Part shown: one piece after another, positions 10,765-64,000 of the stretch
How positions within the stretch are numbered: position 1 is the stretch's first letter
How the letters are laid out: each line of letters starts with the position of its first letter
Assembly: GCA_964441405.1 (NCBI GenBank)
Contig: CAYTYP010000013.1
Location: 23,779 to 87,778, forward strand
DNA length: 64,000 nucleotides
Reading direction: 5' to 3'
Origin: an uncultured Acidobacteriota bacterium
GTDB taxonomy: Bacteria; Acidobacteriota; UBA6911
Notes under the pieces: generated by a model
Seen by the model: the letters and a program-made list of their open reading frames with translations, nothing else
Database searches by the model: none
Told to the model about the DNA's origin: nothing
Program-made: the position numbers and the translations under genes

Positions 10765-11205
10765 ATGATAGATTCATTCCTGAAAGCCGCTCTTGAAGAA
10801 GCGAAACTGGGACTCGCGGAAGGCGGGATTCCGATCGGGTCGGTTTTGGTTGTTGAAAATAGAATTGTCGGACGGGGCCATAATCGCCGCGTTCAGCGCG
10901 ACAGCGCCATTCTGCATGCGGAAATGGATTGTTTTGAAAATGCCGGCCGGTTGACAAGCAAAGAATACGGACGCGCCATATTATATTCAACCCTCTCCCC
11001 ATGTGATATGTGCAGCGGAGCGGCTTTGCTCTATAAGATTCCCAGGATTGTGATCGGTGAAAATAAAACCTTTCAGGGGCCGGAAGAATATTTGCGCTCC
11101 CGTGGCGTGCAATTGGATATTCTGCAGGACAGCGAATGCATCCGCTTAATGGAGGAGTTTATGAAGGCGCAACCAAGTCTCTGGAATGAGGATATTGGGG
11201 TGTAG
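10765..11205 (+). CDS. CMP/dCMP-type nucleoside deaminase (cytosine/guanine/tRNA-adenosine deaminase family)
   Basis: HAEMDC and SPCDMC zinc-binding motifs. ATG at 10765. Confidence 0.7.
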   Translation: MIDSFLKAALEEAKLGLAEGGIPIGSVLVVENRIVGRGHNRRVQRDSAILHAEMDCFENAGRLTSKEYGRAILYSTLSPCDMCSGAALLYKIPRIVIGENKTFQGPEEYLRSRGVQLDILQDSECIRLMEEFMKAQPSLWNEDIGV

Positions 11206-11259
11206 GCTCAGGAGCCTGTCCGAGAAGTAGGATGGGGCATATCCTAATTCTCGGACAGG

Positions 11260-11841
11260 CTAGGTTTCTTCAGGGTGGATCCATTTATCCACGAGGGCTG
11301 GTTCCCAGGTCGAAAGGCGGGTCAGCAGGTCCTCGACGCTCTTTGCATCGAGTATTAAAGATCTATGTTGGGGCCGCAACAGACGTGTTTCGACAATGTG
11401 ATCCAGGAATTTGAGAAAATGGTTGTAAAATCCGGATATATTAAGTAGACCGAAGGGTTTTTTGTGAAGGCCCAATTGCGCCCAGGTGAGAATCTCGCAA
11501 AACTCTTCCAGAGTTCCAAATCCTCCCGGCAATGCAATGAATCCGTCCGATAGCTCGGTCATAAGAGCTTTACGTTCGTGCATGGAATTTACTATCCGGA
11601 GCTCTGTAACTCCATGATGCGCAAGCTCTTTGTCTACAAGAGCTTGAGGGATTACACCAATCACCTGACCGCCGGCGTTCAGGCCGGCGTCCGCAATTAC
11701 TCCCATCAGCCCTATATTTCCTCCGCCGTAGACCAATCCGATTTTTCTTTGAGCCAAAGCTCGGCCAAGAGACTCCGCTGCAAGGGTGAAGGCTGGATCA
11801 TTTCCAATGCTTGATGCACAAAATACGCAAAGTTGTTGCAT
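11260..11841 (-). CDS. LOG-family (TIGR00730) cytokinin riboside 5'-monophosphate phosphoribohydrolase-like protein
   Basis: GLVYGGGNIGLMG and PGGFGTLEE motifs. Confidence 0.75.
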   Translation of the reverse strand: MQQLCVFCASSIGNDPAFTLAAESLGRALAQRKIGLVYGGGNIGLMGVIADAGLNAGGQVIGVIPQALVDKELAHHGVTELRIVNSMHERKALMTELSDGFIALPGGFGTLEEFCEILTWAQLGLHKKPFGLLNISGFYNHFLKFLDHIVETRLLRPQHRSLILDAKSVEDLLTRLSTWEPALVDKWIHPEET

Positions 11842-11957
11842 GAATATCTCCAGTTCAGGTTATAGCACAATTTAGGTAGACCAGACCCGCATTCAAGTTT
11901 TTCTTGACGTCCACGCTTGGAACGACGAAGCTATGCAGCAACTGGAGGATCGAAGAT

Positions 11958-13319
11958 ATGAAGGGCATATTGGCGTTTTTGGTTTTTTGTACCTTTGCAT
12001 GGAGTGTCGGCCCAGGTGAAAGTTACTGGCCATACTGGCGCGGGCCGGCTGCTGACGGCATGGCGGCAGGAGATGCTCCGCTACACTGGAGCGATACCCA
12101 AAATGTCAAATGGAAGGCGGATGTTCCAGGACGTGGCAGCTCCAGTCCGGTGATATGGGGCGATCAGATATTCGTGACTACTGCCATTCCAACCGGCGCT
12201 GCCCCCAAAACGGAACCCAAGCAGGCAACGCCTGCGGCGCCGGCGCCGAAATTCGGCAGGAGCATGGGTTTTGGCGGGCCGCCTCCGGTTGAGCAGGATT
12301 TTGTAGTGATCTGTCTTGACCGGAAAACAGGCAAGGAATTATGGCGACGCACAGCCGTAACGGCGACTCCGCATGAGTCTCATCATGCTCAATATGGAAG
12401 TTTTGCGTCCAATTCACCTGTTACGGACGGCAAACATATTTATGCATTTTTTGGATCGCGCGGAATCTATTGTTACGACATGAAAGGAGAATTGGTCTGG
12501 AAAAAAGATTTCAATGTGAAGATGCGGATGAGAATGCAATTCGGGGAAGGGATGGCTCCGGTTCTTTCCGGCGACCGGTTGATTTTAGTCTTTGATCATG
12601 AAGGGGATCAGACCGCAACGCCCGCAACGTCTTCCTTTATGGTTGTGCTCGACAAGAATTCCGGGAAAGAGATCTGGAGAGCGGACAGGGACGAAAAAAC
12701 CAATTGGTCGGCGCCTCTTGTGGTGGATTTCAAAGGAAAGAAGCAAATTATAGTCAGCGCCACCAAGAGGGTGCGAAGCTACGATTTTGAGACAGGGAAA
12801 GAGACTTGGCAGTGTGGCGGCCTTGGTGAGAATCCGATCCCCCAGCCTGTGCGCCAGGATGATTTGATCTTCGCCATGACAGGTTATGGGAGGAGTCCCA
12901 AATTGATGACAATCCGGCTCGGCAGGGAAGGCGATTTGACCGACACCGACGCGGTGGTATGGAGCCAGACTAAGGGAAATTCCTACACGCCGTCTCCAGT
13001 GATTTACGATAATAAGTTTTATGCATTAACGGACGACGCCAAGTTCAGCTGCTATAACGCCCGCACAGGTGAACCTTATTATCATCAGACCCGAATTCCC
13101 AATGCCGCCAATTTCAAATCCTCTCCAGTGGGAGCTAATGGCAAGTTGTACATGGCGGACGAAAGTGGCAATATTTTTGTTCTCAGGATGGGCGAGAAGT
13201 TTGAGGTTCTTGCGACAAATGCCATGCCCAACGAGATGTTTATTGCCACTCCGGCCATTGTGGGCGGCGAAATCTTTCTCAGAAGCATGAATCGCCTTTA
13301 TTGCATTCACGAAAACTAA
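11958..13319 (+). CDS. secreted PQQ-like beta-propeller repeat protein
   Basis: Signal peptide MKGILAFLVFCTFAWS. Repeated propeller-blade patterns (G.IY..D..TG...W). Confidence 0.6.
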   Translation: MKGILAFLVFCTFAWSVGPGESYWPYWRGPAADGMAAGDAPLHWSDTQNVKWKADVPGRGSSSPVIWGDQIFVTTAIPTGAAPKTEPKQATPAAPAPKFGRSMGFGGPPPVEQDFVVICLDRKTGKELWRRTAVTATPHESHHAQYGSFASNSPVTDGKHIYAFFGSRGIYCYDMKGELVWKKDFNVKMRMRMQFGEGMAPVLSGDRLILVFDHEGDQTATPATSSFMVVLDKNSGKEIWRADRDEKTNWSAPLVVDFKGKKQIIVSATKRVRSYDFETGKETWQCGGLGENPIPQPVRQDDLIFAMTGYGRSPKLMTIRLGREGDLTDTDAVVWSQTKGNSYTPSPVIYDNKFYALTDDAKFSCYNARTGEPYYHQTRIPNAANFKSSPVGANGKLYMADESGNIFVLRMGEKFEVLATNAMPNEMFIATPAIVGGEIFLRSMNRLYCIHEN

Positions 13320-49629: not shown

Positions 49630-49955
49630 TCAGCGCTCCCGCGCGAAGACGGATATTCGTTTTCTGATGGATTTCTCTTAAGCCAGCAGTATGGGGTTTA
49701 TTAATGAATTTTTCATCATAATTTGGAGTTATCTGCATGATTTAACAAATCCACTCTTGACTCCTGATCCGTCTGTTCCTCCGGAGCCGCTCTCCGGCCA
49801 ACTTCGAAATTGGGATTATTATGCGGGCTGAGCGATTAACCCGTTAGTAATAGCGCAGCGCTTCCTTGCTTTTCTTTTTCGGGCTCATTATTCTCTTACC
49901 GTTTTCCCAAATACATTATTGGAATTATATTTTCAGGGCGGTGTAATGGCTCGTT

Positions 49956-50857
49956 ATGATCAGACCACACGGCAATTATGCCATTGGGATGGGGCCTCAT
50001 AAAAACTATCGGCAATACAAAGAAACGATCGACCGGCTCACGGACGCGATCGATCGGAAGCGTATCGTAGAGATGCGGTATTACTCAGCTTCCCGCAATG
50101 TTCCCGGTGGGTGCAGTCGATAGTGCGAGTCGTCTAATGACGCATGGGTTTGGGTAAAGCGCCTGTCGGCTGGTTGCACCGATAGCGCGTCCCGTTAGGG
50201 ACGCTATGGATTAAGCCCGGCACTTTAGTGCCGGGTTTATAGGAACCCCCAAAGTTTAGTCCCGTAGGGACGGCTGAAAATATATGGTTTGATTTCCGCC
50301 GTCCCGGGACGTGTGCGGAATTGGGCAAGACGCCGATGATGTTCCCAGGAGCGACTTATGGACACTCCATTTATTGACTTGTACTTCCGATTGCACCCGT
50401 TACCGGTCGAAGAGCCGTAGGTCCTTACCGGATATGGTATGCGGCTGGAGGGCTCTATTTGATCGGCTATTGCCATAAGCGCCGGGATGTCCGGATGTTT
50501 GCAATCGAAAGAATCCGATCATTGGCAGTGACGAACAATCCATGCCAGATGCCCCTGGGGTTCGACATCGAGGCGTATGTTCAGGACGCTTTGGTGGTAA
50601 TGCGCGGCAAGCCGATCGAGGTGGAACTCGTGTTCGAGCCCAAGGCGGCGGCATGGGTAAAAGATCGCGAGTGGCATGCCAGCCAGGTTCTTTTACCGGT
50701 GAAGGGCGGCCGTTTGAAGATGCGGTTGAGTGTGGCGGACACGCCTGAACTTGTCGGCTGGATCCTGAGTTTCGGCGCCGGTGTGCGCGTAGTTTCGCCT
50801 GCACGTCTCCGGGAGCGCGTTCTCGCCGAAGCAAAAAATATTTGTGAAAAAGAATAA
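49956..50857 (+). pseudogene. WYL-domain regulator gene (WYL + C-terminal WCX-like domain) interrupted by a miniature insertion
   Basis: Frame 0 reads ...IDRKRIVEMRYYSASRNVPG up to 50108. After the insertion, frame 2 resumes with VTGRRAVGPYRIWYAAGGLYLIGYCHKRRDVRMFAIERI (WYL motif) through a C-terminal domain to the stop at 50857. Confidence 0.65.
50109..50402. mobile_element. non-autonomous miniature insertion (MITE-like) with TIRs and 5-bp TSD
   Basis: Left end GGGTGCAGTCGATAG and right end CTTCCGATTGCACCC form an imperfect TIR. Flanking CCGGT is duplicated at 50104-50108 and 50403-50407. Interior holds GTCCC..GGGAC hairpins at 50187-50204, 50260-50272 and 50300-50311, and CCCGGCACTTTAGTGCCGGG at 50216-50235. 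Confidence 0.55.
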
Positions 50858-51554
50858 TCTTTGTCCCCGGATGTCACATCCCGGAATTAGCATCGTTTTC
50901 GTATTTCGATTTGTAAATGTGACTGACGCAGCCGAAGGCTGGGTGGATGGATTTAAACGCAGAGAGATTTCTTCGATGATTCCTTCTTCGGATACATAAG
51001 AATTATCACCGGATTCCAGGTAGTGTGCTATGGCTTCAAGGATGTTGTTGCGAGCTTCTTCCGGCGGGAGTTTTTCGATGCCGTCATGGAGTTCTTTAAT
51101 GTTCTCATAAATGCAGAATACCGCTGCGTCCGCATCGACTCAAGCGCCTTTGCGCTGGCGTCTCGTTCGAGTTCATGCGATTTACGCTGTTTTAGGCAAA
51201 GAAGAATGATCTCTCGACTTAATTGGTTTGGCAGATGACAATAACTATTTGATGTATTCGAGTATTGATGTGAAAAAAACTAAAAAACTATCTTCACAAC
51301 AAATAGAACAGAACAATGATTGGGTTGCCAATTGTATTGAAAATGAGCCTATTCTGGAAGAGATGCGAATGCTTCGACTTCAGGAAATAGATGATGAAAC
51401 CGTTCGGAAGACAACTCTTTAGCTGTTCAGCATGTGGCGGCCAAGGGAATCTGATGATCATGGTGCCGGCATGATGGAATAGTGAAAATTTTAGCAAAGC
51501 TCCGCCTGCTCGAATCAAAAGGAAGAATCAGCGAGTGAATTCACATCCCAGTAA

Positions 51555-51668
51555 TTTATGAAATGGATTGATTATTTGGTAATTAATTGGATTGGATTAG
51601 CTTAGAAAAATTACTTTTGGAATTATTTTGGGATTCGTTTGATTGATCATATGGAGGATTTATAGCAA
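51555..51668 (+). promoter_or_regulatory. AT-rich cas3 upstream region with iterated TGGATTG/GGATT direct repeats (candidate promoter/operator)
   Basis: AATGGATTGATTATTTGGTAATTAATTGGATTGGATTAGC...TTTTGGAATTATTTTGGGATTCGTTTGATTGATC immediately upstream of the GGAGG RBS of cas3. Confidence 0.4.
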
Positions 51669-54545
51669 ATGGAAGATTTCAGCAATGATCGAATCAATAA
51701 TGAATTTCTTCGGAAGGCATTGAGGCTGCGAGAAAGTGAAACTCCATTTCCTTGGCAGGAAGAACTTCTGCGACGATTCCTGCGCGGATCTATACCCCCG
51801 GCACTCGATATTCCGACTGGACTGGGCAAAACGGCTGTAATGGCAATCTGGCTTATCGCCCGTGCTGGTGGAGCGGCGCTTCCAAGGCGGCTTGTTTATA
51901 TAGTGGATCGACGAGCTGTTGTTGATCAAGCCACCGATGTGGCCATTGCGCTCCACGATCTGGTCGATAGCAATGCTGACCTGAAGACAAGGCTCAGACT
52001 GGATGATAATCGCTCGCTTCCCATCTCAACGCTTCGTGGTAAACATGTTGATAACCATGAATGGCTTGAGGATCCGTCATCACCTGCAATAATCGTCGGA
52101 ACTGTGGACATGATTGGCTCACGGCTGCTTTTCGAAGGCTATGGCGTTTCTCGGAAAATGCGCCCCTATCATGCGGGACTTCTTGGCGCCGACGCGCTCA
52201 TTGTGCTCGACGAGGCTCATCTTGTGCCGCCATTCGAGATGCTTCTCAAGTTCATTGCCGAAAGAGATGCTGATTTTAGGCCAACCGATAAATTACTGGA
52301 TAAATTGGTGCCGCGATTCAGACTGCTTTCACTTTCAGCAACTGGCCGAACTTTAGGCGAAGACTCTATTAGACTGGAAAAAGCTGATCTAAACCACGAA
52401 GAATTGAAGAAGCGCCTCAATGCTGAAAAGTGCTTATTGCTGAAACTAAACAATGAAGATACTGACAGCGCTCAAACTGAAGCTAATATAAACCAGAAGG
52501 AAAAGTGGAGCATTTCGGAAGAATTGGCAAAGGAGGCCTGGAAGATCGTTGAGAATGGCACAAACAATACCAGAATCATTATTTTTTGTAACTGCCGTAA
52601 GGATGCGAGTGATACGAAGAGCGCCGTAGAGAAACTGGCAAAGGGCGATAAAAAGGCTGGCAAGGGGCCCGTCTTAATCCATTCAGAGCTTTTCGTCGGT
52701 GGACGCAGGATTTATGAGCGCGAAGAGGCCAAGATGCGCCTTGTAAAATTTGGTTTTATTGCAGGGAGTGAACAGACTCCTGATCGACCAACATTTCTCT
52801 TCGCGACATCAGCAGCAGAAGTTGGCGTGGATCTCGACGCCGATCATATGGTATGCGATCTTGTTGCCTGGGAGCGCATGGTTCAGCGGCTTGGTAGAGT
52901 CAATCGAAGAGGTAACTGCACTGCAAATGTTACCGTTGTCATGGAGCCAGAACCAAAACCTAAAAATAAAAAAGAAAAGGATGTAATAAATAAGAAGGCT
53001 AGCGGGAAGTCCTTGGAGGAGAAAGAAATCAAAATCTTAGATGCTTTTGAAGCTCGAGTCCGTGAGTGGAAAAACTATCAGAAGCCTTTCAGACATCTGC
53101 CGCTGATAAGTAATGGTGCATTTGATGCAAGCCCAGGAGCTCTTTCTAATCTAAAACAGCGTGCCGAATCAGACAAAGAGCTTGGGGAAATTTTGAGAAA
53201 TGCAACCACGCCCACCCCTCTGCGGCCTGTCCTCACTCGCGCACTTGTCGATGCATGGTCGATGACTTCTCTCAAGGAACACACCGGACGTCCAATGATC
53301 GATCCGTGGTTGCGTGGATGGAAAAAAGATGAGCTTCATACAAATATTGTATGGCGTGCGCACCTGCCATTACGGTCATCTTCAAAGCCGCCGGCAAAGA
53401 AAGAGATCGAGCAATTCTTTGAGGCTGCTCCACCACATGCCAGTGAAGTATTAGAGGAGGAAACGTATCGAGTCGTCCAGTGGCTTGAAAAGCGGGCTGT
53501 TGCGGTGCTGAAGAATGCAACTCATAACCCGAGCACGACTGTACGACCACTCCTACCCTCCTCCGATGAAGTGGTAGCTTTCATTCTCTCTCGTTCTGGT
53601 GATTTTCAGGACCACCTTAGATTCAAGGATCTCATAACTACCGATAATGGCGATTCTCAAAGCAAGCAACAAATGCGGCTCCGCCAGACGCTGGGCGGAG
53701 CAATTCTTGTGGTCGATTCAATTCTTGGTGGCTTAAAAGACGGGTTGCTTGATGAAAAGGAAGATTCTTTGCCCAAAACCACCGATGATGGTCAAGAGTG
53801 GCTCGGGGAGCATGTCGCTGGCTTCCGTATCCGTAGTGTTCGTGCTGATGAATCCCTCGGATCAGATCCATCGTGGCGAGAACGATTTCGCTTTGCAACC
53901 AAACTCACGGAGGAGGGAGAACCAAGGCTATGGCTCATCGTCGAAAAGTGGCGGCATGAAGCAACAACCGAAGATGATCGATCCTCGTCTCATCCGCAAA
54001 TTTTGGAGGAGCATCAATCATGGGCAGAGGATCGGGCCCGTAATCTTGCACAAAAACTTCAATTGGATGAGCCTTATCTCAAAATGCTTGCAATCGTGGC
54101 TCGTCTGCACGACGAAGGCAAGCGCTTTCGCCGGTGGCAGCGAGGCTTCAATGCATCTAAAGATGGGATATATGCGAAAACAAAGGGGCCGATAAACTAC
54201 GCCTTATTAGATGGCTACCGACATGAGTTAGGTTCTCTTCTTATCGCTGAGAATGACGAAAAGATTAATTCTCTTTCTGAGGAATTACGCGAGCTCGCAC
54301 TACATCTAATCGCTGCCCATCATGGTTTTGCGCGCCCCGTCATTGGCACTCACGGCTGCGAGGATGCCCCGCCATCCGTTGTGGAAACGCGGACTTGTGA
54401 AGTGGCGCTGCGTTTTTCACGCCTTCAGCGGCGTTGGGGCCCATGGGGACTTGCATGGTGGGAAACGCTCCTTCGGGCGGTTGACCAGCAGGCTTCTCGC
54501 GAAAATGATGCCGCTGAATTGGTGATACAAAAGGAGGAGTTCTGA
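51669..54545 (+). CDS. cas3: Cas3 helicase-nuclease with C-terminal HD domain (type I-G/I-U architecture)
   Basis: N-terminal SF2 helicase motifs (DIPTGLGKTAV Walker A, LIVLDEAHL motif II) and C-terminal HD-nuclease motifs (ARLHDEGKRFRRWQ, IAAHHGFARP). 958 aa. GGAGG RBS. Confidence 0.85.
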   Translation: MEDFSNDRINNEFLRKALRLRESETPFPWQEELLRRFLRGSIPPALDIPTGLGKTAVMAIWLIARAGGAALPRRLVYIVDRRAVVDQATDVAIALHDLVDSNADLKTRLRLDDNRSLPISTLRGKHVDNHEWLEDPSSPAIIVGTVDMIGSRLLFEGYGVSRKMRPYHAGLLGADALIVLDEAHLVPPFEMLLKFIAERDADFRPTDKLLDKLVPRFRLLSLSATGRTLGEDSIRLEKADLNHEELKKRLNAEKCLLLKLNNEDTDSAQTEANINQKEKWSISEELAKEAWKIVENGTNNTRIIIFCNCRKDASDTKSAVEKLAKGDKKAGKGPVLIHSELFVGGRRIYEREEAKMRLVKFGFIAGSEQTPDRPTFLFATSAAEVGVDLDADHMVCDLVAWERMVQRLGRVNRRGNCTANVTVVMEPEPKPKNKKEKDVINKKASGKSLEEKEIKILDAFEARVREWKNYQKPFRHLPLISNGAFDASPGALSNLKQRAESDKELGEILRNATTPTPLRPVLTRALVDAWSMTSLKEHTGRPMIDPWLRGWKKDELHTNIVWRAHLPLRSSSKPPAKKEIEQFFEAAPPHASEVLEEETYRVVQWLEKRAVAVLKNATHNPSTTVRPLLPSSDEVVAFILSRSGDFQDHLRFKDLITTDNGDSQSKQQMRLRQTLGGAILVVDSILGGLKDGLLDEKEDSLPKTTDDGQEWLGEHVAGFRIRSVRADESLGSDPSWRERFRFATKLTEEGEPRLWLIVEKWRHEATTEDDRSSSHPQILEEHQSWAEDRARNLAQKLQLDEPYLKMLAIVARLHDEGKRFRRWQRGFNASKDGIYAKTKGPINYALLDGYRHELGSLLIAENDEKINSLSEELRELALHLIAAHHGFARPVIGTHGCEDAPPSVVETRTCEVALRFSRLQRRWGPWGLAWWETLLRAVDQQASRENDAAELVIQKEEF

Positions 54546-55462
54546 TGACAGAAGCATCCATTCCGGTTGATTTATTCAATCCCGGGCAGGTGTTCGCCTG
54601 CCTTGGTTTTCTTGAGGCGGCCGAAATGCTGCTCGGCAATGCGGAGGGCGGCTTCGATTGGAGCATTCATAAGGATATTTTCTTTCGCCTCTGCGCTAAG
54701 GGTGCGAAAAATCCTTTTTCAGTCGTTCTACAGTTCCTTACAACCGCAGATATCATTCCACATAGTTTTACTCAGTGTACTTTGAATTCGATGTTTGACA
54801 GTAATGGAGCCCCTATCTCTGACATCCAAATAGATTGTTCGGGCACATTCCCTTGTCCGGATGTGGACACAATGACATTACCAATCCACCTTGTTGGATT
54901 ACTGAACGATGAAAAATATTTGATTAATTTTAGCCACTGGGCTGATGGATCGAGTCGCAATACTTTTAAACTCTATTCCGGCAACCGATCCGCAGCTGAT
55001 ATTTCGCGCGCCATGCTATTGGGAACTCAAAAGAAGTCAAAGAAGAAACAAGGCGAGATGGAAACGTACGGCCTTCGATCCTTATGGAAGGAGCATCGAT
55101 CAGAGCTGGAAAAAAACCCATTCAATGTTCTAACACCGCTTGGGGGGAGTTTTAATTTTGATCCAAGAGGTGCATGGACAGGAATAGACGCCGGGTATTC
55201 TCCAAATGATCAGAAACATGCCATGGCAGCCTCGCCAGTTGTCGAGATCCTGGCGGCTCTCGGGCTTGAGCACGCACGGCCGGATGAATTCAAGACTCGC
55301 CAGGTGCGATATGCAGCCTGGAACTCAATAATTCCGCCTTTTCTCGCGAGAGCTGCTCTATCCGGTGCGCTCTTAAACATTCCGCTAAGGAAGTTTCAAT
55401 TCACCCTTTTTCTTTCGGGGAAGAATAAGGTCATCACATTTGCAAAGGAGGAAATACAATGA
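54545..55462 (+). CDS. Cascade-like effector subunit, 305 aa, in the large-subunit (Cas8u) position; family unassigned
   Basis: ATGA overlap with the cas3 stop, so translationally coupled. No motif could be assigned by eye. Confidence 0.45.
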   Translation: MTEASIPVDLFNPGQVFACLGFLEAAEMLLGNAEGGFDWSIHKDIFFRLCAKGAKNPFSVVLQFLTTADIIPHSFTQCTLNSMFDSNGAPISDIQIDCSGTFPCPDVDTMTLPIHLVGLLNDEKYLINFSHWADGSSRNTFKLYSGNRSAADISRAMLLGTQKKSKKKQGEMETYGLRSLWKEHRSELEKNPFNVLTPLGGSFNFDPRGAWTGIDAGYSPNDQKHAMAASPVVEILAALGLEHARPDEFKTRQVRYAAWNSIIPPFLARAALSGALLNIPLRKFQFTLFLSGKNKVITFAKEEIQ

Positions 55463-56697
55463 CGGAAGTAACGGAAGTAATCACTGAGGAGGTTTTGAAT
55501 AATTGGGCAACGGATGAAAAGGGCCCTGTGGCCCTTCACATGAAACAGAGACTCTTGCCTGTAGAAGTGTTAGATGAAGAGACTGGCATAATATTCCCTC
55601 CCACGTATGCCGACATCGGATACAACATCGATACGCTTTTTGACGGCACGAGGGTTGCTACTATCGACAGTATCGGTTCGCAAGCCAACCGACTTGAGCC
55701 GAACTTCAAATCCAATTCACAGAACAAGGAGGAGTGGCTAGTTCCGCAAATTGAGATCGTACTGCGTTCGGAACCGTGCGGAGAATGTGAGGCGTGCAAG
55801 GAAGTCAAACGCGTAGGTGGAAAGAGCAAAGCAAGCGGCTGTATAAAGCCAAAGCAGGTGAAACGTTCGATCTTCGATCTTGCGCACCGCGCTGCCGATG
55901 CCGTTGTCCAGTCTTCCCCTGGACTTAATGGGCTCATCAAAGATGCATTCAAGGCGCTTCAAGAAGGCGATGCCCTGCCTCTTTGTTCATTAGCACCGAC
56001 ATCGCTGGTTTTCGGTGTGTGGGATTCGCGCGGAGGAAGCGGCGAAAAGCGCCCTCGCTTGGTTCGCTCTATTATTCGGGCCTGGGACGTAGAACCGCTG
56101 CATGCTGCAGCACAGTTTAATTCTGTCTGGAAAGCTCTCGATGAAGAGCAAAAAGAGGATTTGAAAAAGGAGGCGACGGCAAAGAAGGTCGAGTTGTCGG
56201 AGAAAGGCTTCGCGGATGCTCCGGCGGTTTTTCGCAAAACCAAGATTCAGCTATATCGCGAGGGTACGCCGAATCCAGAAGCCCGTGTTCTTGGTGGCAT
56301 TTTCGTCAAGGGGCGAATTGAGCGCGACGTTACCGTGAATCTTGTTGCGCTCCGTGGCCTTTACGGTAAATATGACATGACAAATGCAATTCGCAAATAT
56401 CTTCTCGGTCTTTCTCTACTTGCCGCGACGGCAGATATCGACTTGTTCCTTCGTGAGGGCTGCCACCTGCGCTATGCGGCAGAAGATAATTGGTTCGAAG
56501 TGCCTCGCAGGGGCAACCCAACGCTATTGAAATTCCCTACTGATTCGAAATTCTTAATGAATTATATAATGGAAGCTTCAAAAGGATTCAGATCAGCATG
56601 GCCGGAGAAGTTGGAATATGTATTTAATTTAAGTGAGGCAAAAAGGCTGCTTGCGAAAAATACAAATGATCATGAAGAAGCAGTTGGAGGTGCATGA
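55459..56697 (+). CDS. Cascade-like effector subunit, 412 aa, probable Cas7 (Csb1-like)
   Basis: ATGA overlap with the upstream gene. The size and position match the Cas7 slot. Glycine-containing loop LGGIFVKGRIERDV. Confidence 0.45.
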   Translation: MTEVTEVITEEVLNNWATDEKGPVALHMKQRLLPVEVLDEETGIIFPPTYADIGYNIDTLFDGTRVATIDSIGSQANRLEPNFKSNSQNKEEWLVPQIEIVLRSEPCGECEACKEVKRVGGKSKASGCIKPKQVKRSIFDLAHRAADAVVQSSPGLNGLIKDAFKALQEGDALPLCSLAPTSLVFGVWDSRGGSGEKRPRLVRSIIRAWDVEPLHAAAQFNSVWKALDEEQKEDLKKEATAKKVELSEKGFADAPAVFRKTKIQLYREGTPNPEARVLGGIFVKGRIERDVTVNLVALRGLYGKYDMTNAIRKYLLGLSLLAATADIDLFLREGCHLRYAAEDNWFEVPRRGNPTLLKFPTDSKFLMNYIMEASKGFRSAWPEKLEYVFNLSEAKRLLAKNTNDHEEAVGGA

Positions 56698-59105
56698 TGT
56701 CCAGTGCACTTGCAATCCATGTGCGCTTTCATGATGGGCGCTATCATGGCGACAGCGACTGGCCTCCGTGTCCCGCCCGGCTTTTTCAGGCACTTGTCAG
56801 CGGCGCCGGGCTCAGTGGCCCGATCAGCGAGAAGTTTTCTAATGCGCTCAAATGGCTGGAGAGCATTCCGCCCCCACTGATCGGTGCGCCGCAAGCGCAG
56901 CGCGGCCAGCGCGTCATGTTTTATATGCCGAACAATGATATGGATATAGTGGGCGGTGATCCGCTACGAATTGCGGAAATTCGCACCGCAAAAAAGTATT
57001 TCCACCCCTATTTATTCGATTTAAATATTCCGTTCCTCTTCCTCTGGCAAAATATAACTGATGAACACACCCATTATGCCAACGAGATTTGCGAGGCTGC
57101 GTACCATCTTTATCAACTCGGTCGTGGCATCGATATGGCATGGGCGTGGGCCGATTTGCTCAACATGGCTAAGGTCGATGAACTACTTGCGAGCTATCCT
57201 GGGCAAATACATCGTCCGTCAACCGGAATCGGCGAAAATCATACAAATACACTTTTATGTCCGCATCCGGGGTCATTGGAGTCCATTTGCAAACGCTACC
57301 AGGCCTATAGTCACAGGTTTATGATTGCGAGGAAAGGCAAGACGGTAAAGCAAACTTTCCAGAAGGCGCCACAAGCGAGCTTCCGGTCCGTTTCATACGA
57401 CAATCCGCCAACACGCTATATTTATGAGCTTCGCAGGTCACCGGATCCGTTGTTGTTTTTTCCGTGGCCATTATCAGAAGTATCGAAGCTTATTGTTTGC
57501 TTGCGGGATGGAGCAGTGGATCGGCTCAAGACGGCGTTGCCTGACCAAGCTGCTCAAATTGATCGTGTGCTTGTAGGGCGAAAGTCTGATGGCACAAATG
57601 CCGGTTCGACAGCCGAACGGGTAAGAATTATTCCTCTACCATCTGTCGGACATCCTCACGCTGATCATGCAATTCGGCGGATTCTGGTTGAAGTGCCCGC
57701 TGCCTGTCCGCTGAGAGCAGATGACGTATCATGGGCATTTTCGGCACTTGTTGAGCCTGTTGATATCGCAACAGGCGAAATATATCCACTCGTTCTGATA
57801 TCCACTGCTGATGAAAATATACTGCGCCACTTTGGCATGGGAGAAAACTCCGAAGCTTCAGTATGGCGCACGATTACGCCAATTGCTGTTCCAGAGGTAG
57901 CCGGCAGGAGAAGAATCGAGCCAACCATACAGCTCGCCCAAGCCAAATCGGGAGCGGAACGTGTTTACGAGCAACATATCGCCGCAGCGTCCATAATCCA
58001 GGCGTTGAGACATGCGGAGATTCGTGAGCAACCCGTGGCAGTCAAGGTTCAGCGAGAACCTTTTGAGGGTAATGGCGAACGGGTGGAAGCCTTTGCTAAC
58101 AGAACAAGATTTTATTCCCGGAGCCTCTGGCATGCCGAGATCACCTTTTTAAAGCCTCTCTCGGGTCCTCTGGTGGTCGGTGACGGTCGCTTCTTCGGCC
58201 TGGGTGTTATGGTTCCAAACGCTTTGAAAAGGACGCATGTTGCCCAATTTGTACTGGATTCTACGGTGTTGCCGCAAATCACTGAGGCGCTGCCGGTGGC
58301 GGAGTCTGCCCGCCGGATATTGATGGGCATAGGCGGCCGTATGTTCTCCGCTCCTGATGGATCGCGGGGGCGTTCTGATGTTTTTTCAGGTAAAAATGAA
58401 AATGGAAGACCGTTGGAAGGGCATGGCCATGCTTATTACCTTCCAACGGATGAGGACCAGGATGGCTATATTGACCATTTGACGATCATTGCAGTTGGTG
58501 GGTTCAACGAGCAGGATCTCAAGGTCCTGGATGCGTTGCGAGAATTAAAAAGCAAAGAGCGGGAAGCATCCGGCCATCCGCTTCGAACTTTACTGATAGG
58601 TATAGGAAGGTTGGACGAATACCGCCCCTACTTGATGCAGCCATCAAGAATATGGCGTTCTGCAACACCATTCATCGCTTCACGCTTTCTTAAAAAGCGA
58701 GGCACAAAACGCGATCCTGTTGAATTCTGGAATAATCCACATGATTTTCTCATTGCTGTTTTGAGGGAGGAAATGGCTAGGTTTATTGCCCGGCGGTTTG
58801 AATTGAAGGATCTAAATCCGGATAAAATCAAGATCAGGCCACTTTTAGATGAAAACAGTGTTTTTCGAATCGGCCGGCAAAATCTTCGACCGATCCAGTT
58901 TAAAAGGTTTCGTCAGAAGAAGGGGGATGATGGAGGCAATCGTCCGGCAGGATCATTTGAAATTGATTTTGGCCGCGATGTTAGCGGTCCTATCGCTCTC
59001 GGCCACTCCTCCCATTTCGGCTTGGGACTGTTTGTTCCGGTAAATGAGCAAAATGAATCTGGCGATGGAACTGTTATTAATGATCCTATTATTGGTATGA
59101 TATGA
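56694..59105 (+). CDS. enlarged Cas5-Cas6 fusion (Csb2-like), 803 aa
   Basis: N-terminus RFHDGRYHGDSDWPPCPARLFQALV resembles the Cas5u/Csb2 family N-terminal signature. Two RAMP-type glycine-rich loops: LVVGDGRFFGLGVMVP mid-protein and ALGHSSHFGLGLFVP near the C-terminus. ATGATG overlap with the upstream gene. Confidence 0.55.
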   Translation: MMSSALAIHVRFHDGRYHGDSDWPPCPARLFQALVSGAGLSGPISEKFSNALKWLESIPPPLIGAPQAQRGQRVMFYMPNNDMDIVGGDPLRIAEIRTAKKYFHPYLFDLNIPFLFLWQNITDEHTHYANEICEAAYHLYQLGRGIDMAWAWADLLNMAKVDELLASYPGQIHRPSTGIGENHTNTLLCPHPGSLESICKRYQAYSHRFMIARKGKTVKQTFQKAPQASFRSVSYDNPPTRYIYELRRSPDPLLFFPWPLSEVSKLIVCLRDGAVDRLKTALPDQAAQIDRVLVGRKSDGTNAGSTAERVRIIPLPSVGHPHADHAIRRILVEVPAACPLRADDVSWAFSALVEPVDIATGEIYPLVLISTADENILRHFGMGENSEASVWRTITPIAVPEVAGRRRIEPTIQLAQAKSGAERVYEQHIAAASIIQALRHAEIREQPVAVKVQREPFEGNGERVEAFANRTRFYSRSLWHAEITFLKPLSGPLVVGDGRFFGLGVMVPNALKRTHVAQFVLDSTVLPQITEALPVAESARRILMGIGGRMFSAPDGSRGRSDVFSGKNENGRPLEGHGHAYYLPTDEDQDGYIDHLTIIAVGGFNEQDLKVLDALRELKSKEREASGHPLRTLLIGIGRLDEYRPYLMQPSRIWRSATPFIASRFLKKRGTKRDPVEFWNNPHDFLIAVLREEMARFIARRFELKDLNPDKIKIRPLLDENSVFRIGRQNLRPIQFKRFRQKKGDDGGNRPAGSFEIDFGRDVSGPIALGHSSHFGLGLFVPVNEQNESGDGTVINDPIIGMI

Positions 59106-59124: not shown

Positions 59125-59481
59125 TTGTCCGGAACGATAATGAAAGAGATTAAAGAGCTTCAAGAAAAAGAACGGATGGCCCTTGAAGAACTGAAATTGA
59201 GGATCAGCTCGGAATTGCCGGAACCATCTTGCCGGCTCACTCTTTTCGGATCAAAGGCAAGAGGCGATGCTGAGCCCGATTCCGATATTGATGTTCTGGT
59301 TGAATTGGACGCACTCCATGTTTCTCCGGTTTATAAGCGGAAACTGCGGCGCATCGCAGGAGAGTTGTCCATAAAATTCCGCGTTTTGCTTTGTCTCCTC
59401 ATCATTGATCGGAGCACGCGTGAAGAGAAAGGCGATTACGCCATTTTGCAGAATATTCGTGAAGAGGGAATTTCCGTATGA
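59125..59481 (+). CDS. minimal nucleotidyltransferase (MNT/MntA-type antitoxin)
   Basis: LFGSKARGDAEPDSDIDVLV (GSxxxG...DxD) motif. 118 aa. Confidence 0.75.
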   Translation: MSGTIMKEIKELQEKERMALEELKLRISSELPEPSCRLTLFGSKARGDAEPDSDIDVLVELDALHVSPVYKRKLRRIAGELSIKFRVLLCLLIIDRSTREEKGDYAILQNIREEGISV

Positions 59482-59876
59482 GTGGGAAGGAAATTCGCGA
59501 ATTGCTCCAAAAAGCCGACCGAAGCCTTAAGGCTGCTGAAATATTACTGCAACAAGGCTATTGTGACTTCTCCATATCACGCGCCTACTATGCAATGTTT
59601 TATGCCGCGCAGGCTATTCTTCTTACCAAAGATGTTCGTCGAGTAAAACATTCCGGTATTATCGCCGCATTTAATGAATTGTTTGTGCATTCAGGTCAAT
59701 TGCCCCATGATCTCTTTATTTCATTGCGCGATGCTTTTGAGGATCGAGCCGAAGGCGACTACGGTTTAAATGTAATTTCTGAAGAACAAGCTGTCTCGTG
59801 TCTTTTGGAAGCACGTAAATTTGTTGCTGAAATAGACAAGAAATTGGGAGCATGGTCGGAATCCCATGACCATTAG
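59478..59876 (+). CDS. HEPN-domain protein (HepT-type toxin partner)
   Basis: ATGA overlap with the MNT gene. SRAYYAMFYAAQAILL HEPN core helix. 132 aa. Confidence 0.65.
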   Translation: MSGKEIRELLQKADRSLKAAEILLQQGYCDFSISRAYYAMFYAAQAILLTKDVRRVKHSGIIAAFNELFVHSGQLPHDLFISLRDAFEDRAEGDYGLNVISEEQAVSCLLEARKFVAEIDKKLGAWSESHDH

Positions 59877-59906: not shown

Positions 59907-60410
59907 TCATTTCATTCTTAATTTTATATCGATCAGGATTGTTGCATCGGCAAGGTGTTGTGTTTCGGAGTAGACGACTATGATGCCTTTGATTTTGCCG
60001 GAGGATTTACCACCGGTGAATTGCTGCTTGAGGTCCTCTGATAGAGCGCTGGACAGGAGCAGTTCTTTTGCTTTATCGGTGAAATAAAAAGTCGTCCGGA
60101 AAGAACCTTTAATAACCGAAAGCCAGAAGATGGTTTTCTTCTTTAGAGTGACTTTCAAAAGCCAGCCTTTCACGTCACGGTAATAGCGCCACTCTCTTGT
60201 AAAATCTGGATGATCGGCGTCGAGATGTTTGAAAAGCGAATTCCATAGCGGTTTCGTTTTCCCGATATGCGCGAAAATAATCTCATCCGTAGGGCGTTCG
60301 TTCGGGTTGGATAAAGCAATCGGTTCCATAAACCATCTCCGGTCGGAAAATTCAAATAATACACTGATTCCATGAGCTATAAAAAAAAGAATCTTTGAAT
60401 ATGAGCGCAC
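59907..60410 (-). CDS. hypothetical protein embedded in the cas locus (opposite strand)
   Basis: 167-aa ORF (the likely start at MEPIALSNPNERP gives about 140 aa). No family recognised by eye. Confidence 0.4.
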   Translation of the reverse strand: MRSYSKILFFIAHGISVLFEFSDRRWFMEPIALSNPNERPTDEIIFAHIGKTKPLWNSLFKHLDADHPDFTREWRYYRDVKGWLLKVTLKKKTIFWLSVIKGSFRTTFYFTDKAKELLLSSALSEDLKQQFTGGKSSGKIKGIIVVYSETQHLADATILIDIKLRMK

Positions 60411-60496: not shown

Positions 60497-60787
60497 ATGC
60501 GTACGAGCTATCTGGTTTGCTACGATATTGCCGACGACAAAAGGCTGCGAAGCGTATTCAAAAAAATGCGCAGCTACGGCGATCACCTTCAGTTCTCCGT
60601 TTTCGAGTGCCAGTTGTCTCCGGCCGATCTCGTACGTTGCCGCACGGAACTGGATGCGATCATCAATCATAGGGAAGACCAGGTGCTTTTTGTGAATATC
60701 GGGCCGTCCGAGGGGCGAGGCGATCGGGTGATTACCGCCTTGGGCAAGCCCTACATCCATATAGACAGCCCTTGCATCGTGGTGTGA
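60497..60787 (+). CDS. cas2: Cas2
   Basis: 96 aa. YLVCYDIADDKRLRSVFKKMRSYGDHLQFSVFEC is the Cas2 N-terminal signature. Confidence 0.85.
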   Translation: MRTSYLVCYDIADDKRLRSVFKKMRSYGDHLQFSVFECQLSPADLVRCRTELDAIINHREDQVLFVNIGPSEGRGDRVITALGKPYIHIDSPCIVV

Positions 60788-62562
60788 AAGTGGAAACGAC
60801 TCAGGAAATTTCTAAGGAAGAAGGCAGAGAGCCTGTCCCGGAATACCTGCCCGCCCGTATGCTGAATGAGTTTGTCTATTGTCCGCGGCTTTTTTTCTAT
60901 GAATGGGTAGATGGAGTTTTCGAGGAAAGCGCGGATACGCTTGAAGGAAAAGCCCAGCATAAGAGGGTGGATGAGACGGTTTCATCCCTCCCTGCTCCCG
61001 AAGAACTTGAAGATGAGTCCATGCGTTCGCGGTCCGTAAGCATGTCCAGCGACCGCTATGGAGTGATTGCCCGTATGGACCTGGTGGAGGTTGAAAACGG
61101 AACCGTCACGCCCGTGGATTATAAGCATGGCGATCCCCGGGAGACGAAAACAGGCATCGAACTCTGGCCTGCGGACAAATTTCAATTGGCGACTCAGGGA
61201 TTGATTCTTAAAGACAACGGATACCGGTGCGATGAAGGATTAGTCTATTACTTCAAGACAAAACAAAGAGTACGCGTTCAATTAGATGAATTCCTGATTG
61301 CGGAAACTCTTCAGTTGATCAAGGATGCGCGGACAACAGCCGCCTCCGGACAGATCCCGACTCCATTGACTGATTCGCCAAAATGCCAGGGGTGTTCTCT
61401 TGTAGGCATATGCCTGCCGGATGAAACTTCGGAACTTTCGGCCGCGAGGACGGTTGAGGAGGCCTCCCAGCTTTCATTTTTTGAAGAAAATGAAACGGTA
61501 AAACATGTTTCGTCTTCCGTTCGAAGGCTGATCACGCCCAGGGACGATCTGCGCCCTGTTTATATCAATACACATGGCATGCGCATTGGTAAATCAGGCG
61601 AAGTCCTGCAGATTCGCGACAAGGATGCACTGAAACAGGAAATCAGGATTCATGAGATGTCGCAACTCAATATTATGGGAAATGTCCAGGTGTCCACCCA
61701 GGCGATACAAAGCCTTTGCCAGGAAGACATTCCTATCTGTTATTTTTCTCAGGGCGGCTGGTTCTACGGCATTACGGCCGGAATGAATGTCAAAAATGTC
61801 TTTTTAAGAAAAATTCAATATCGTCTTTCCGATGAAACCTGGTTCGCGCTGTCGTTCGCCAGACAACTCATCTCCGGAAAAATCAAAAATCAACGGACAA
61901 TGCTGCAAAGAAATCATATCGAGCCGAAAGCCATTACTTTACAGCAGATGAAAACGATGGCCGAAAGAGCCGAGCAGGCAGGAAGCCTTGAAGAATTGCT
62001 GGGGATCGAAGGGAACGCGGCAAGATTATATTTCGGCGATTTTAACGGCATGATCAAAGTGGAAGAGGGAGACGAAACCGGCAAACAGTTTGCATTCGAT
62101 TTTTCAAAGAGAAACCGGCGCCCTCCGAGGGATGCGGTGAACGCCATGCTTTCTTATTGCTATAGCCTTCTGGCCAAGGACTGCACGATCGCTTGTTATG
62201 CCGTCGGCTTTGATCCGATGATGGGCTTTTACCATCAACCCCGCTTTGGGAGACCATCCCTTGCTCTTGACCTGATGGAACCGTTTCGCCCCCTTATCGG
62301 CGATTCCGTGACGCTCAGCGCTATCAATAATCGCATGGTGCAGAGTAGGGATTTTGTGGAAGCAGGGCCTTCGGTTTCACTTACACCCTCAGGGCGAAAA
62401 GGTCTGTTGCATGCTTATGAATTACGCATGGATGCACTTGTCACTCACCCGATCTTTGATTATCGCGTAAGTTATCGTAGACTGTTGGAGATTCAGGCAA
62501 GGCTGCTTGCTCGATATTTGAATAATGAGATTGCCGAATATCCGGTATTTGTAACTCGATGA
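60772..62562 (+). CDS. cas1: Cas4-Cas1 fusion protein
   Basis: N-terminal Cas4 RecB-nuclease/Fe-S part (LNEFVYCPRLFFYEW ... CQGCSLVGIC). C-terminal Cas1 motifs (LGIEGNAARLYF, VNAMLSYCYSLL, ALDLMEPFRPLIGD). The exact start is ambiguous (TTG 60772, GTG 60784/60790 or ATG 60859). Confidence 0.85.
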   Translation: MHRGVKVETTQEISKEEGREPVPEYLPARMLNEFVYCPRLFFYEWVDGVFEESADTLEGKAQHKRVDETVSSLPAPEELEDESMRSRSVSMSSDRYGVIARMDLVEVENGTVTPVDYKHGDPRETKTGIELWPADKFQLATQGLILKDNGYRCDEGLVYYFKTKQRVRVQLDEFLIAETLQLIKDARTTAASGQIPTPLTDSPKCQGCSLVGICLPDETSELSAARTVEEASQLSFFEENETVKHVSSSVRRLITPRDDLRPVYINTHGMRIGKSGEVLQIRDKDALKQEIRIHEMSQLNIMGNVQVSTQAIQSLCQEDIPICYFSQGGWFYGITAGMNVKNVFLRKIQYRLSDETWFALSFARQLISGKIKNQRTMLQRNHIEPKAITLQQMKTMAERAEQAGSLEELLGIEGNAARLYFGDFNGMIKVEEGDETGKQFAFDFSKRNRRPPRDAVNAMLSYCYSLLAKDCTIACYAVGFDPMMGFYHQPRFGRPSLALDLMEPFRPLIGDSVTLSAINNRMVQSRDFVEAGPSVSLTPSGRKGLLHAYELRMDALVTHPIFDYRVSYRRLLEIQARLLARYLNNEIAEYPVFVTR

Positions 62563-62747: not shown

Positions 62748-64000
62748 ATTTCCGCGATTGAAAGATCGCGGCCCCATTGAAGCGACCAAACCATAGCGCA
62801 CCCGGCAACCAGGATCGAAATTTCCGCGATTGAAAGATCGCGGCCCCATTGAAGCGTGCAAATTTGCACAAGGTCGGTTCTGGCGCCCTGATTTCCGCGA
62901 TTGAAAGATCGCGGCCCCATTGAAGCTCTGCGGGATGCACGAATACCAGCGAGAGCCGCCCGATTTCCGCGATTGAAAGATCGCGGCCCCATTGAAGCCA
63001 GGTTATAGGGTAGAGGTCTATCCAATTCGGAGCTATTTCCGCGATTGAAAGATCGCGGCCCCATTGAAGCACCATTTCATCCTGGCCGTGCGTGATGTTT
63101 TCAGGCATATTTCCGCGATTGAAAGATCGCGGCCCCATTGAAGCTTGATGTGTCATTTCGCGTCTCCTTTTTCGATTTTGATTTCCGCGATTGAAAGATC
63201 GCGGCCCCATTGAAGCTGATATAACGGCAACGTCAATTGGTTGTGTTCAACCACATCCAGATTTCCGCGATTGAAAGATCGCGGCCCCATTGAAGCATTG
63301 GAACGGATATCACAAAGACCATGCTCGATAGATTTCCGCGATTGAAAGATCGCGGCCCCATTGAAGCATGTAGGCCCGGACGGTGAAGGGCGTTCCAGGC
63401 GTGCATTTCCGCGATTGAAAGATCGCGGCCCCATTGAAGCTTTGGAATTTTCGGTGGATTTTGATTCAATGGGTCGGATTTCCGCGATTGAAAGATCGCG
63501 GCCCCATTGAAGCTCGTAGTGCTGTCGTTCCTGTCTCTTGTGCTGATCAATTTCCGCGATTGAAAGATCGCGGCCCCATTGAAGCATTCCGTCAATCGTT
63601 CCTGTTGGCGTCTCGGTGTATGATTTCCGCGATTGAAAGATCGCGGCCCCATTGAAGCTCCCCGCTACCATTCGCGGACATTTTCATCCGTTAATTTCCG
63701 CGATTGAAAGATCGCGGCCCCATTGAAGCCGCCCGTAACAAGCGGGTCGGTCTGCGCCTTGATTAATTTCCGCGATTGAAAGATCGCGGCCCCATTGAAG
63801 CCCGTGTGGATTTCCAGGGGCGGCTCCTCATCTTCCCAATTTCCGCGATTGAAAGATCGCGGCCCCATTGAAGCTATAAAACTGACGGCTTTGTACAAGC
63901 AGGCGTTGCGTGAATTTCCGCGATTGAAAGATCGCGGCCCCATTGAAGCACTGCTCCGATAATCGGTTTAATACTCTCTACTTCCAATTTCCGCGATTGA
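62748..64000 (+). CRISPR. CRISPR array, 36-bp repeat ATTTCCGCGATTGAAAGATCGCGGCCCCATTGAAGC; 17 complete repeats plus a truncated 18th at the window edge
   Basis: Repeats start at 62748, 62820, 62891, 62963, 63035, 63109, 63181, 63261, 63332, 63405, 63478, 63550, 63623, 63694, 63766, 63839, 63914 and 63987 (truncated). Spacers are 35-39 nt, with one of 44 nt. The repeat has an internal 7-bp palindrome CCGCGAT/ATCGCGG. Confidence 0.95.

Follow-up and report, generated by a model that had tools for sequence, protein, structure and literature searches.

Apparent decay, by deletion and insertion of a miniature element, of a cas3-linked WYL regulator gene in an uncultured Acidobacteriota bacterium

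WYL regulators encoded beside type I cas operons have been described among the CRISPR-associated WYL proteins (Makarova et al. 2014). The only CRISPR-linked WYL protein tested experimentally, sll7009 of the Synechocystis type I-D system, is a repressor (PMC4012209), as are the WYL regulators of BREX and CBASS (PMC12887000). DriD of Caulobacter crescentus and PafBC of mycobacteria, by contrast, are activators that sense single-stranded DNA (ssDNA) and combine a winged helix-turn-helix (wHTH) with WYL and WCX domains. The DriD box reads ATACGAC-N7-GTCGTAT, with G2/C4 and G12/C14 read by two arginines (PMC10853764), and DriD occupies poor -35 elements with constant spacing to the -10 (PMC12340889); the PafBC promoter, tGTCgg-N10-tAnnnT, consists of a -26 element and a -10 and has no -35 (PMC8635444). 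Here we analyze a gene related to these regulators at positions 49946-50857 of a 64,000-nucleotide stretch ("the window") of contig CAYTYP010000013.1, from the uncultured Acidobacteriota assembly GCA_964441405.1. It lies 811 bp upstream of the cas3 gene of a type I-G CRISPR-Cas locus and is best read as the dead remnant of a wHTH-WYL-WCX transcription factor gene.

The regulator gene and its homologs

An earlier, sequence-only reading of this window described two reading frames on either side of an insert of ~294 bp, about 800 bp upstream of cas3, and joined them into a WYL-only protein of ~200 amino acids (aa). The frames lie where that reading placed them, the upstream one at 49956-50108 (ending ...YYSASRNVPG) and the downstream one at 50399-50857 (starting VTGRRAVGPYRIWY...), and the distance to cas3 agrees with it. 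Excision of the insert together with one copy of its flanking repeat, a check that the same reading had proposed, leaves a 603-nt open frame encoding 200 aa. In this repaired product, Pfam WYL (PF13280, E=1.1e-19) spans residues 23-91, unbroken over the junction at residues 49-51, and a C-terminal WCX domain (PF25583, E=2.9e-19) covers residues 120-195, which bears out the assignment to a WYL/WCX regulator.

The proposed size of the native protein did not hold. A homology search returned 1079 relatives. The best 120 (62-82% identity) are almost all 325-339 aa long; 111 of them measure 320-350 aa and carry an N-terminal wHTH domain. A profile built from the homologs aligned with DriD (PDB 8tp8) over positions 3-320 (E=1.3e-12), also with PafB/PafC and other wHTH-WYL-WCX proteins, and the PADLOC profiles for CRISPR-associated WYL proteins matched at E=1e-39. 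The 200-aa repaired frame corresponds to only the C-terminal 60% of these homologs, and their N-terminal winged-helix domain is absent from the window copy. What remains of the gene is arranged as follows:

49946-49978, plus strand: start remnant, codons 1-11 (MARYDQTTRQL), located by tblastn of residues 1-11 of homolog P0008
49975-49988: apparent junction of an out-of-frame deletion, ~371 bp lost, codons ~12-134 (wHTH and helical linker)
49977-50108, plus strand: first part of the WYL domain, P0008 residues 135-178 by tblastn and L001 10418-10543 by blastn, within the open reading frame (ORF) 49956-50123
50399-50857, plus strand: remaining WYL part, WCX domain and stop codon (50855-50857), from Pfam and from tblastn of P0008 residues 176-327 (75% identity)

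Two points were absent from the earlier reading, namely the true start at 49946, in another frame, and the loss of ~371 bp coding for the DNA-binding domain. Homologs begin MARYDQ(T/A)TRQL, and the window's MARYDQTTRQL is identical to residues 1-11 of P0008 and near-identical in P0002 and P0007. The frame opened at 49946 meets a stop codon at 50000-50002. Directly after these 11 codons the window continues with ...NYAIGMGPHKNY, residue ~135 of the homologs, in the other frame; the protein alignment correspondingly contains 124 columns that are empty in the window sequence alone, and tblastn across the window revealed no HTH-coding remnant. The breakpoint is located to 49975-49988 rather than to a single nucleotide.

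The reading frame of the window copy is thus broken twice, by a frameshifting deletion and by a 299-bp insertion. From these features we conclude that 49946-50857 is, on sequence grounds, a pseudogene of a cas3-linked wHTH-WYL-WCX transcription factor of ~328 aa when intact, and that the two lesions are independent, either alone being enough to abolish a DNA-binding regulator. The earlier claim that the insertion inactivates a cas regulator therefore stands in that the gene is dead, and fails in singling out the insertion, since the deletion is equally sufficient. The 194 codons that are left carry no additional decay, which points to a probably recent date for both events: at columns conserved to at least 95%, the window copy deviates once, against a mean of 0.97 deviations in intact homologs. 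The ratio of nonsynonymous to synonymous rates (dN/dS) was not raised in the window copy, in a comparison made uninformative by saturated dS.

Intact homologs usually form the gene nearest to cas3 on its upstream side, in agreement with the link to cas3 that had been proposed. They stand directly upstream of cas3 at type I-G loci (L001, L058, and the contigs of P0004 and P0012), at a type I-E locus (L003), and at a type I locus of the DevT/DevR type (L004). Two scans of viral contigs for WYL relatives returned none.

Decay or invasion around the regulator gene recurs in other relatives. In L059 (1497-4632), a PIN toxin-antitoxin pair and an IS1595 transposase lie between the WYL gene and cas3. 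In L060 (4598-10609), a frameshifted WYL gene adjoins a type I-G locus without cas3 and with csb2 in fragments, and the frameshifted WYL genes of L061 (4618-5594) and L062 have no cas genes nearby.

The insert and its relatives

The earlier reading was right that a discrete insert splits the gene, and its size needed correction: the insert measures 290 bp and, with a duplicated 9-bp target, accounts for 299 extra bp in the window. It is bounded by terminal inverted repeats (TIRs) and a target-site duplication (TSD):

50100-50108: left copy of the 9-bp TSD, GTTCCCGGT
50109-50398: 290-bp insert, a non-autonomous ISKra4-family miniature inverted-repeat transposable element (MITE) by the match of its TIRs to the insertion sequence (IS) in L026, without a transposase
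50109-50131, plus strand: left TIR, 23 nt, GGGTGCAGTCGATAGTGCGAGTC
50376-50398, minus strand: right TIR, 23 nt, reading inward GGGTGCAATCGGAAGTACAAGTC
50399-50407: right copy of the 9-bp TSD, GTTACCGGT

The two TIRs are imperfect (78% complementary), and the two TSD copies are identical at 8/9 positions, one base apart. Because homologs encode N-V-T-G at this site, within the WYL domain, the right copy probably represents the ancestral sequence and the left copy a later mutation. None of the 111 full-length homologs carries extra residues at the insertion point, and the flanks are contiguous in the intact ortholog of L001, where blastn aligned window 49992-50117 with L001 10418-10543 and 50422-50893 with L001 10549-11019. 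The suggested comparison with related genomes thus yielded uninterrupted alleles.

The parent family was recognized through a 1521-bp IS at L026 446-1966, which has perfect 25-bp TIRs (GGGTGCAATCGAAAGTGCGAGTCAAG); the ends of the window insert match these at 21/23 and 22/25 positions. Its 382-aa product matched the NCBIfam model transpos_ISKra4 (NF033572, E=6e-57), with ISKra4 the closest family and ISLre2 the next, and also Pfam UPF0236. Prokaryotic Mutator-like elements are reported to have terminal-C inverted repeats 18-39 bp long and to be flanked by direct repeats of 8-9 bp (Guerillot et al. 2014; PMC3942029), and the insert fits the published ISKra4 features in the length and terminal C of its inverted repeats and in its 9-bp duplication. 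Given this agreement in ends, TSD, and published features, the insert is, as judged from these signatures, a non-autonomous ISKra4-family element, that is, a MITE of the Mutator-superfamily DDE group. The miniature insertion proposed earlier was in this sense a genuine transposable element. We met no published description of ISKra4-derived MITEs, in a literature reading that included no search aimed at them.

Further members of the group were recovered by their ends. Scanning a genome collection for elements with both ends yielded a single MITE, of 303 bp, in Sedimenticola hydrogenitrophicus (L005 7188-7490), with the same ends and a 9-bp TSD, AACTGGG[C/T]C. A metagenome scan with the consensus end returned 41 loci, among them a 178-bp sister MITE present in two samples (L028 558-735 and L053 269-446) with a perfect 9-bp TSD (GTTTTCACC). 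Paired ends ~1.5 kb apart in L046 and L048, judged by the ends alone, are consistent with more full-length copies. When viral contigs were scanned with a 17-mer of the TIR, 10 single matches appeared, a chance-like outcome.

Members of this IS/MITE group include L026 446-1966, L023 359-1641, L028, L053, and L005, with the end consensus GGGTGCAATCGAAAGTG(C/T). Their hosts are the Sedimenticola genome and uncharacterised metagenome contigs, and many matches lie at contig ends.

The core of the insert contains, on the minus strand, a two-hairpin module (50188-50235 and 50259-50282) that resembles the RNA motif Acido-Lenti-1 (Rfam RF01687) and has no counterpart in the related ISKra4-type elements. 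The stretch 50188-50235 scored 30.4 bits (E=0.0055 for the whole window), below the gathering threshold of 37, and at gathering thresholds Rfam gave no match anywhere in the window. From this resemblance, some copies of Acido-Lenti-1 may be carried by repeat elements.

Three other accounts of the split gene deserve consideration. A naturally ~200-aa, WYL-only cas regulator inactivated by the miniature insertion alone would explain why the repaired ORF is open for 200 aa from the ATG at 49956 with both domain matches, and a few database homologs are indeed listed at ~200 aa. These short homologs were rejected as natural HTH-less proteins: those on long contigs, P0027 (L060) and P0055 (L061/L062), are frameshifted pseudogenes with HTH-coding DNA kept upstream, and the others lie on ~1-kb contigs and are cut at the contig end. 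With 111 of the best 120 homologs at 320-350 aa with an N-terminal wHTH, and with the true start codon and 11 codons of the window copy preserved in another frame, we consider this account very unlikely. We judge it exceedingly unlikely that misassembly, such as chimeric joining or the collapse of a repeat, produced the split, the deletion, or both. The window does come from a draft contig (89.9 kb) that lacks an independent long-read check, but an assembler would not produce the full transposition signature of IS-homologous TIRs and a 9-bp TSD of family length, the exact start codon and 11 codons are kept at the deletion junction, and the downstream 132-aa ORF is identical in an independent Logan assembly and in the NCBI record. 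That the insert is instead a structured-RNA gene or a cluster of hairpins like repetitive extragenic palindromes, an Acido-Lenti-1-type small RNA not derived from a transposon, could draw on the match at 50188-50235 and on folding far stronger than that of shuffled sequence (z=-8.3). That match falls below threshold, related elements lack the motif, and the hairpins may be mere cargo in the MITE core, while the TIRs, the TSD, and the homology to ISKra4 IS ends account for the arrival of the DNA; there is little chance that this account is correct.

The preferred explanation is therefore a gene with two lesions. An out-of-frame internal deletion of ~371 bp took codons ~12-134, comprising the winged-helix DNA-binding domain and linker, and a 290-bp ISKra4-family element transposed into the WYL-domain codons N-V-T-G, duplicating 9 bp. 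As a case, this is ordinary gene decay, with an ISKra4-type MITE lodged in a CRISPR-linked regulator gene of a familiar kind.

The conserved site 3' of the gene

Just past the stop codon of the regulator gene, the window retains a candidate operator and promoter, followed by a second conserved motif:

50862-50893, plus strand: candidate operator and promoter, TGTC (50862-65)-N7-GTCA (50873-76) and TGTCAC (50872-77)-N10-TAGCAT (50888-93)
50918-50950, plus strand: second conserved motif, TGTGACTGACGCAGCCGAAGGCTGGGTGGATGG, with a small hairpin

Of 9 independent loci examined, 6 have the exact core GATGTCAC at 6-13 nt past the regulator stop codon. The site reads (G)TGACCCCGGATGTCAC in L001, L057, and L058, has close variants in L003 and L004, and reads TGTCCCCGGATGTCAC in the window (50862-50877). 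Each locus contains the exact 12-mer CCNGGATGTCAC a single time, invariably at this post-stop position. L061 has only a degenerate form (TGACCTGGCATGTCGC), and in L060 the motif falls within a read-through tail. Homologs that read through translate the site as C-terminal tails (...LSPDVTSGN, ...MTSDVT... and similar), and because the motif persists even where it is translated in this way, the pattern of conservation indicates that the constraint acts on the DNA.

A TAnnnT hexamer follows TGTCAC at exactly 10 nt (TAGCAT in the window; TAGGAT, TAGAAT, and TAAGAT in relatives), imperfectly in L004, and CCCCGG, found at the -35 position, does not constitute a -35 element. The full motif, TGAC/TGTC-N7-GTCAC-N10-TAnnnT, is kept across type I-G, I-E, and other type I loci (L001 10991-11020; L057 1587-1618; L058 6992-7021; L003 10985-11015; L004 10985-11012). 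Its half-sites have the GxC-N7-GxC geometry of the DriD box (CGAC-N7-GTCG), and its spacing from -26 to -10 equals that of PafBC promoters (TGTCxx-N10-TAnnnT), which likewise have no -35 element. This combination, with 10 nt to TAnnnT and no -35 consensus, was found in the window, L001, L057, L058, and L003, and with an imperfect -10 in L004. By analogy, we infer that the regulator family binds the 3' site, and by the same analogy it is somewhat more likely to activate the cas3 operon than to repress it.

In the window, the probable operator and -10 remain intact though the regulator protein is gone. From the activator-dependent, DriD/PafBC-like architecture of this surviving site, the most likely outcome would be that the type I-G cas operon can no longer be inducibly activated from this promoter, with no derepression. 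The loss of a repressor, which the earlier reading had implied, is not favoured by this adjoining architecture.

The second motif consists of TGTGACTGACGC-GGCCGAAGGCTG, with a CAGCC-GAA-GGCTG hairpin, and shares 91% identity with L001 12751-12784, a segment 50-80 nt ahead of cas3g in that locus. Its core also occurs in L057 (1757-1780) and in L058 (7078-7092), in the latter within an intergenic region of ~200 bp. It may be a 5' leader element of the cas3g transcript. L001 is a type I-G and type III locus, and at 11158-12669, between its WYL 3' motif and its cas3g-proximal motif, has a 63-aa ORF and a CARF-family Cas_NE0113 gene, an insertion through which the two motifs are 1.7 kb apart.

Between the conserved motifs and the cas3g start codon, the window contains ~717 bp of AT-rich DNA (50951-51668, 33-45% GC), compared with ~200 bp in total in L058. 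Small ORFs and a gene-like fragment in 50858-51668 have no Pfam matches, no TIRs or TSD delimit the AT-rich stretch, and it has one weak sigma-70-like site (51293-51320). We speculate that this DNA supplies a promoter and may give regulator-independent expression, which would explain how the regulator could decay with the cas genes and array intact.

The same two lesions could instead have removed a repressor like sll7009, BrxR, or CapW and left the I-G operon constitutively derepressed. The precedents of sll7009 and of the BREX and CBASS regulators point this way, an operator over the -35 position could just as well block RNA polymerase, and the cas genes and uniform array look functional. 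Weighing on the other side, the proteins of solved structure nearest in sequence (PafBC, PafC, and DriD) are activators, the site has the exact PafBC spacing (TGTCAC-N10-TAnnnT) together with the DriD half-site geometry, and a -35 element is missing, with CCCCGG at its position, as at activator-dependent promoters. We regard loss of a repressor as a rather unlikely outcome. Taken as a whole, the explanation by a two-lesion pseudogene and a presumed loss of activation is highly probable.

Several observations weigh against this explanation. An allele of the same species without the insert or without the deletion was not found, a scan of metagenomes for an unoccupied insertion site (CCGCAATGTTMCCGGTCGAAGAGCC) having returned 0 matches, and the deletion and insertion are accordingly left unordered. 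The L026 transposase scores 193.6 bits against a curated NF033572 cutoff of 205, just short of it because the called ORF lacks the N-terminal profile positions 1-64. Neither a second copy of the MITE nor an ISKra4 transposase (tblastn with the L026 transposase) is present in the 64-kb window, and the interior of the MITE, a core of ~240 bp, matches none of the related elements. Promoter-like sites in the AT-rich region are no commoner than in shuffled sequence. The direction of regulation is judged by motif geometry alone, and sll7009, the one tested counterpart, represses.

A broader reading, which we offer tentatively, is that the widespread cas3-adjacent family as a whole consists of DriD/PafBC-like, nucleic-acid-sensing activators of type I cas operons, acting at a -35-less promoter 3' of their own stop codon (TGAC-N7-GTCAC-N10-TAnnnT). 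The window would then be a natural knockout with its operator kept, in which the ~717 bp of AT-rich DNA has possibly rewired expression and made the activator dispensable.

The decay of a regulator gene by deletion and a MITE is in itself a routine finding. It does mend an annotation trap: the short "WYL-only" ORFs seen here, like those of some database entries, represent only parts of a transcription factor of ~328 aa. Two by-products are worth more. One is a defined ISKra4-family MITE/IS group, marked by 9-bp duplications and a clear TIR consensus and present in what appears to be an acidobacterial genome, in a Sedimenticola genome, and on metagenome contigs. The other, and the one lead to pursue, is the sharply conserved candidate operator/promoter of the cas3-adjacent WYL regulators, a large family. 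From its geometry, activation is predicted, with ssDNA as the probable trigger, rather than the commonly assumed repression, and this prediction opens the regulation of many type I CRISPR-Cas operons to direct testing.

The type I-G locus and comparison with known systems

Downstream of the regulator remnant, the window contains an apparently intact type I-G cas operon with a complete component set, all above NCBIfam or Pfam cutoffs (for cas8g2, cas7g/csb1, and csb2, the NCBIfam models TIGR04106, TIGR02570, and TIGR02165 are given jointly):

51669-54545, plus strand: cas3g, helicase-nuclease with C-terminal HD domain, first gene of the operon (TIGR02621, E=1.5e-174; Pfam)
54545-55462, plus strand: cas8g2 (NCBIfam)
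55459-56697, plus strand: cas7g/csb1 (NCBIfam)
56694-59105, plus strand: csb2 (NCBIfam)
60497-60787, plus strand: cas2 (Pfam CRISPR_Cas2)
60772-62562, plus strand: cas4g/cas1g fusion (NF049935, E=1e-227)
62748-64000, plus strand: CRISPR array, 36-37-nt repeat ATTTCCGCGATTGAAAGATCGCGGCCCCATTGAAGC, at least 18 identical units, extending past the window end

The Csb2 (Cas5/6-like) ORF is unusually long at 803 aa; the NCBIfam model, of 492 positions, matches residues 5-508 and leaves the C-terminal ~300 aa beyond the match. Inside the operon, between csb2 and cas2, lie a toxin-antitoxin-like pair of MNT (nucleotidyltransferase) and HEPN genes (59140-59481 and 59478-59876) and, in the opposite orientation, a DUF3788 gene (59907-60410). 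The rest of the 64-kb window holds ordinary metabolic genes, and a VWA protein of acidobacterial type encoded in the window suggests an origin in Acidobacteriota.

Compared with described type I-G systems (formerly I-U, GSU0051-0054 type), the locus shares cas3g with its C-terminal HD domain, cas8g2, cas7g/csb1, csb2, the cas4-cas1 fusion, cas2, and an array, and differs in the MNT/HEPN pair and DUF3788 gene between csb2 and cas2 and in the length of Csb2. The insert shares with ISKra4 ISs (p-MULT 4, Mutator-like DDE) and bacterial MITEs its 23-25-bp TIRs ending in C, its 9-bp TSD, and its short, non-coding nature, whereas it lacks a transposase, has a 240-bp core unrelated to the IS interior, and occurs as one copy in 64 kb. 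As with sll7009 and other CRISPR-associated WYL proteins, the regulator stands beside a type I cas operon; the subtype is I-G here and I-E or other type I in relatives, rather than I-D, and the promoter architecture here suggests activation. Intact homologs align end to end with the activators DriD and PafBC, at low sequence identity, but they are linked to cas3 operons instead of DNA-repair regulons, their predicted site lies downstream of the regulator gene, and the window copy is an apparent pseudogene.

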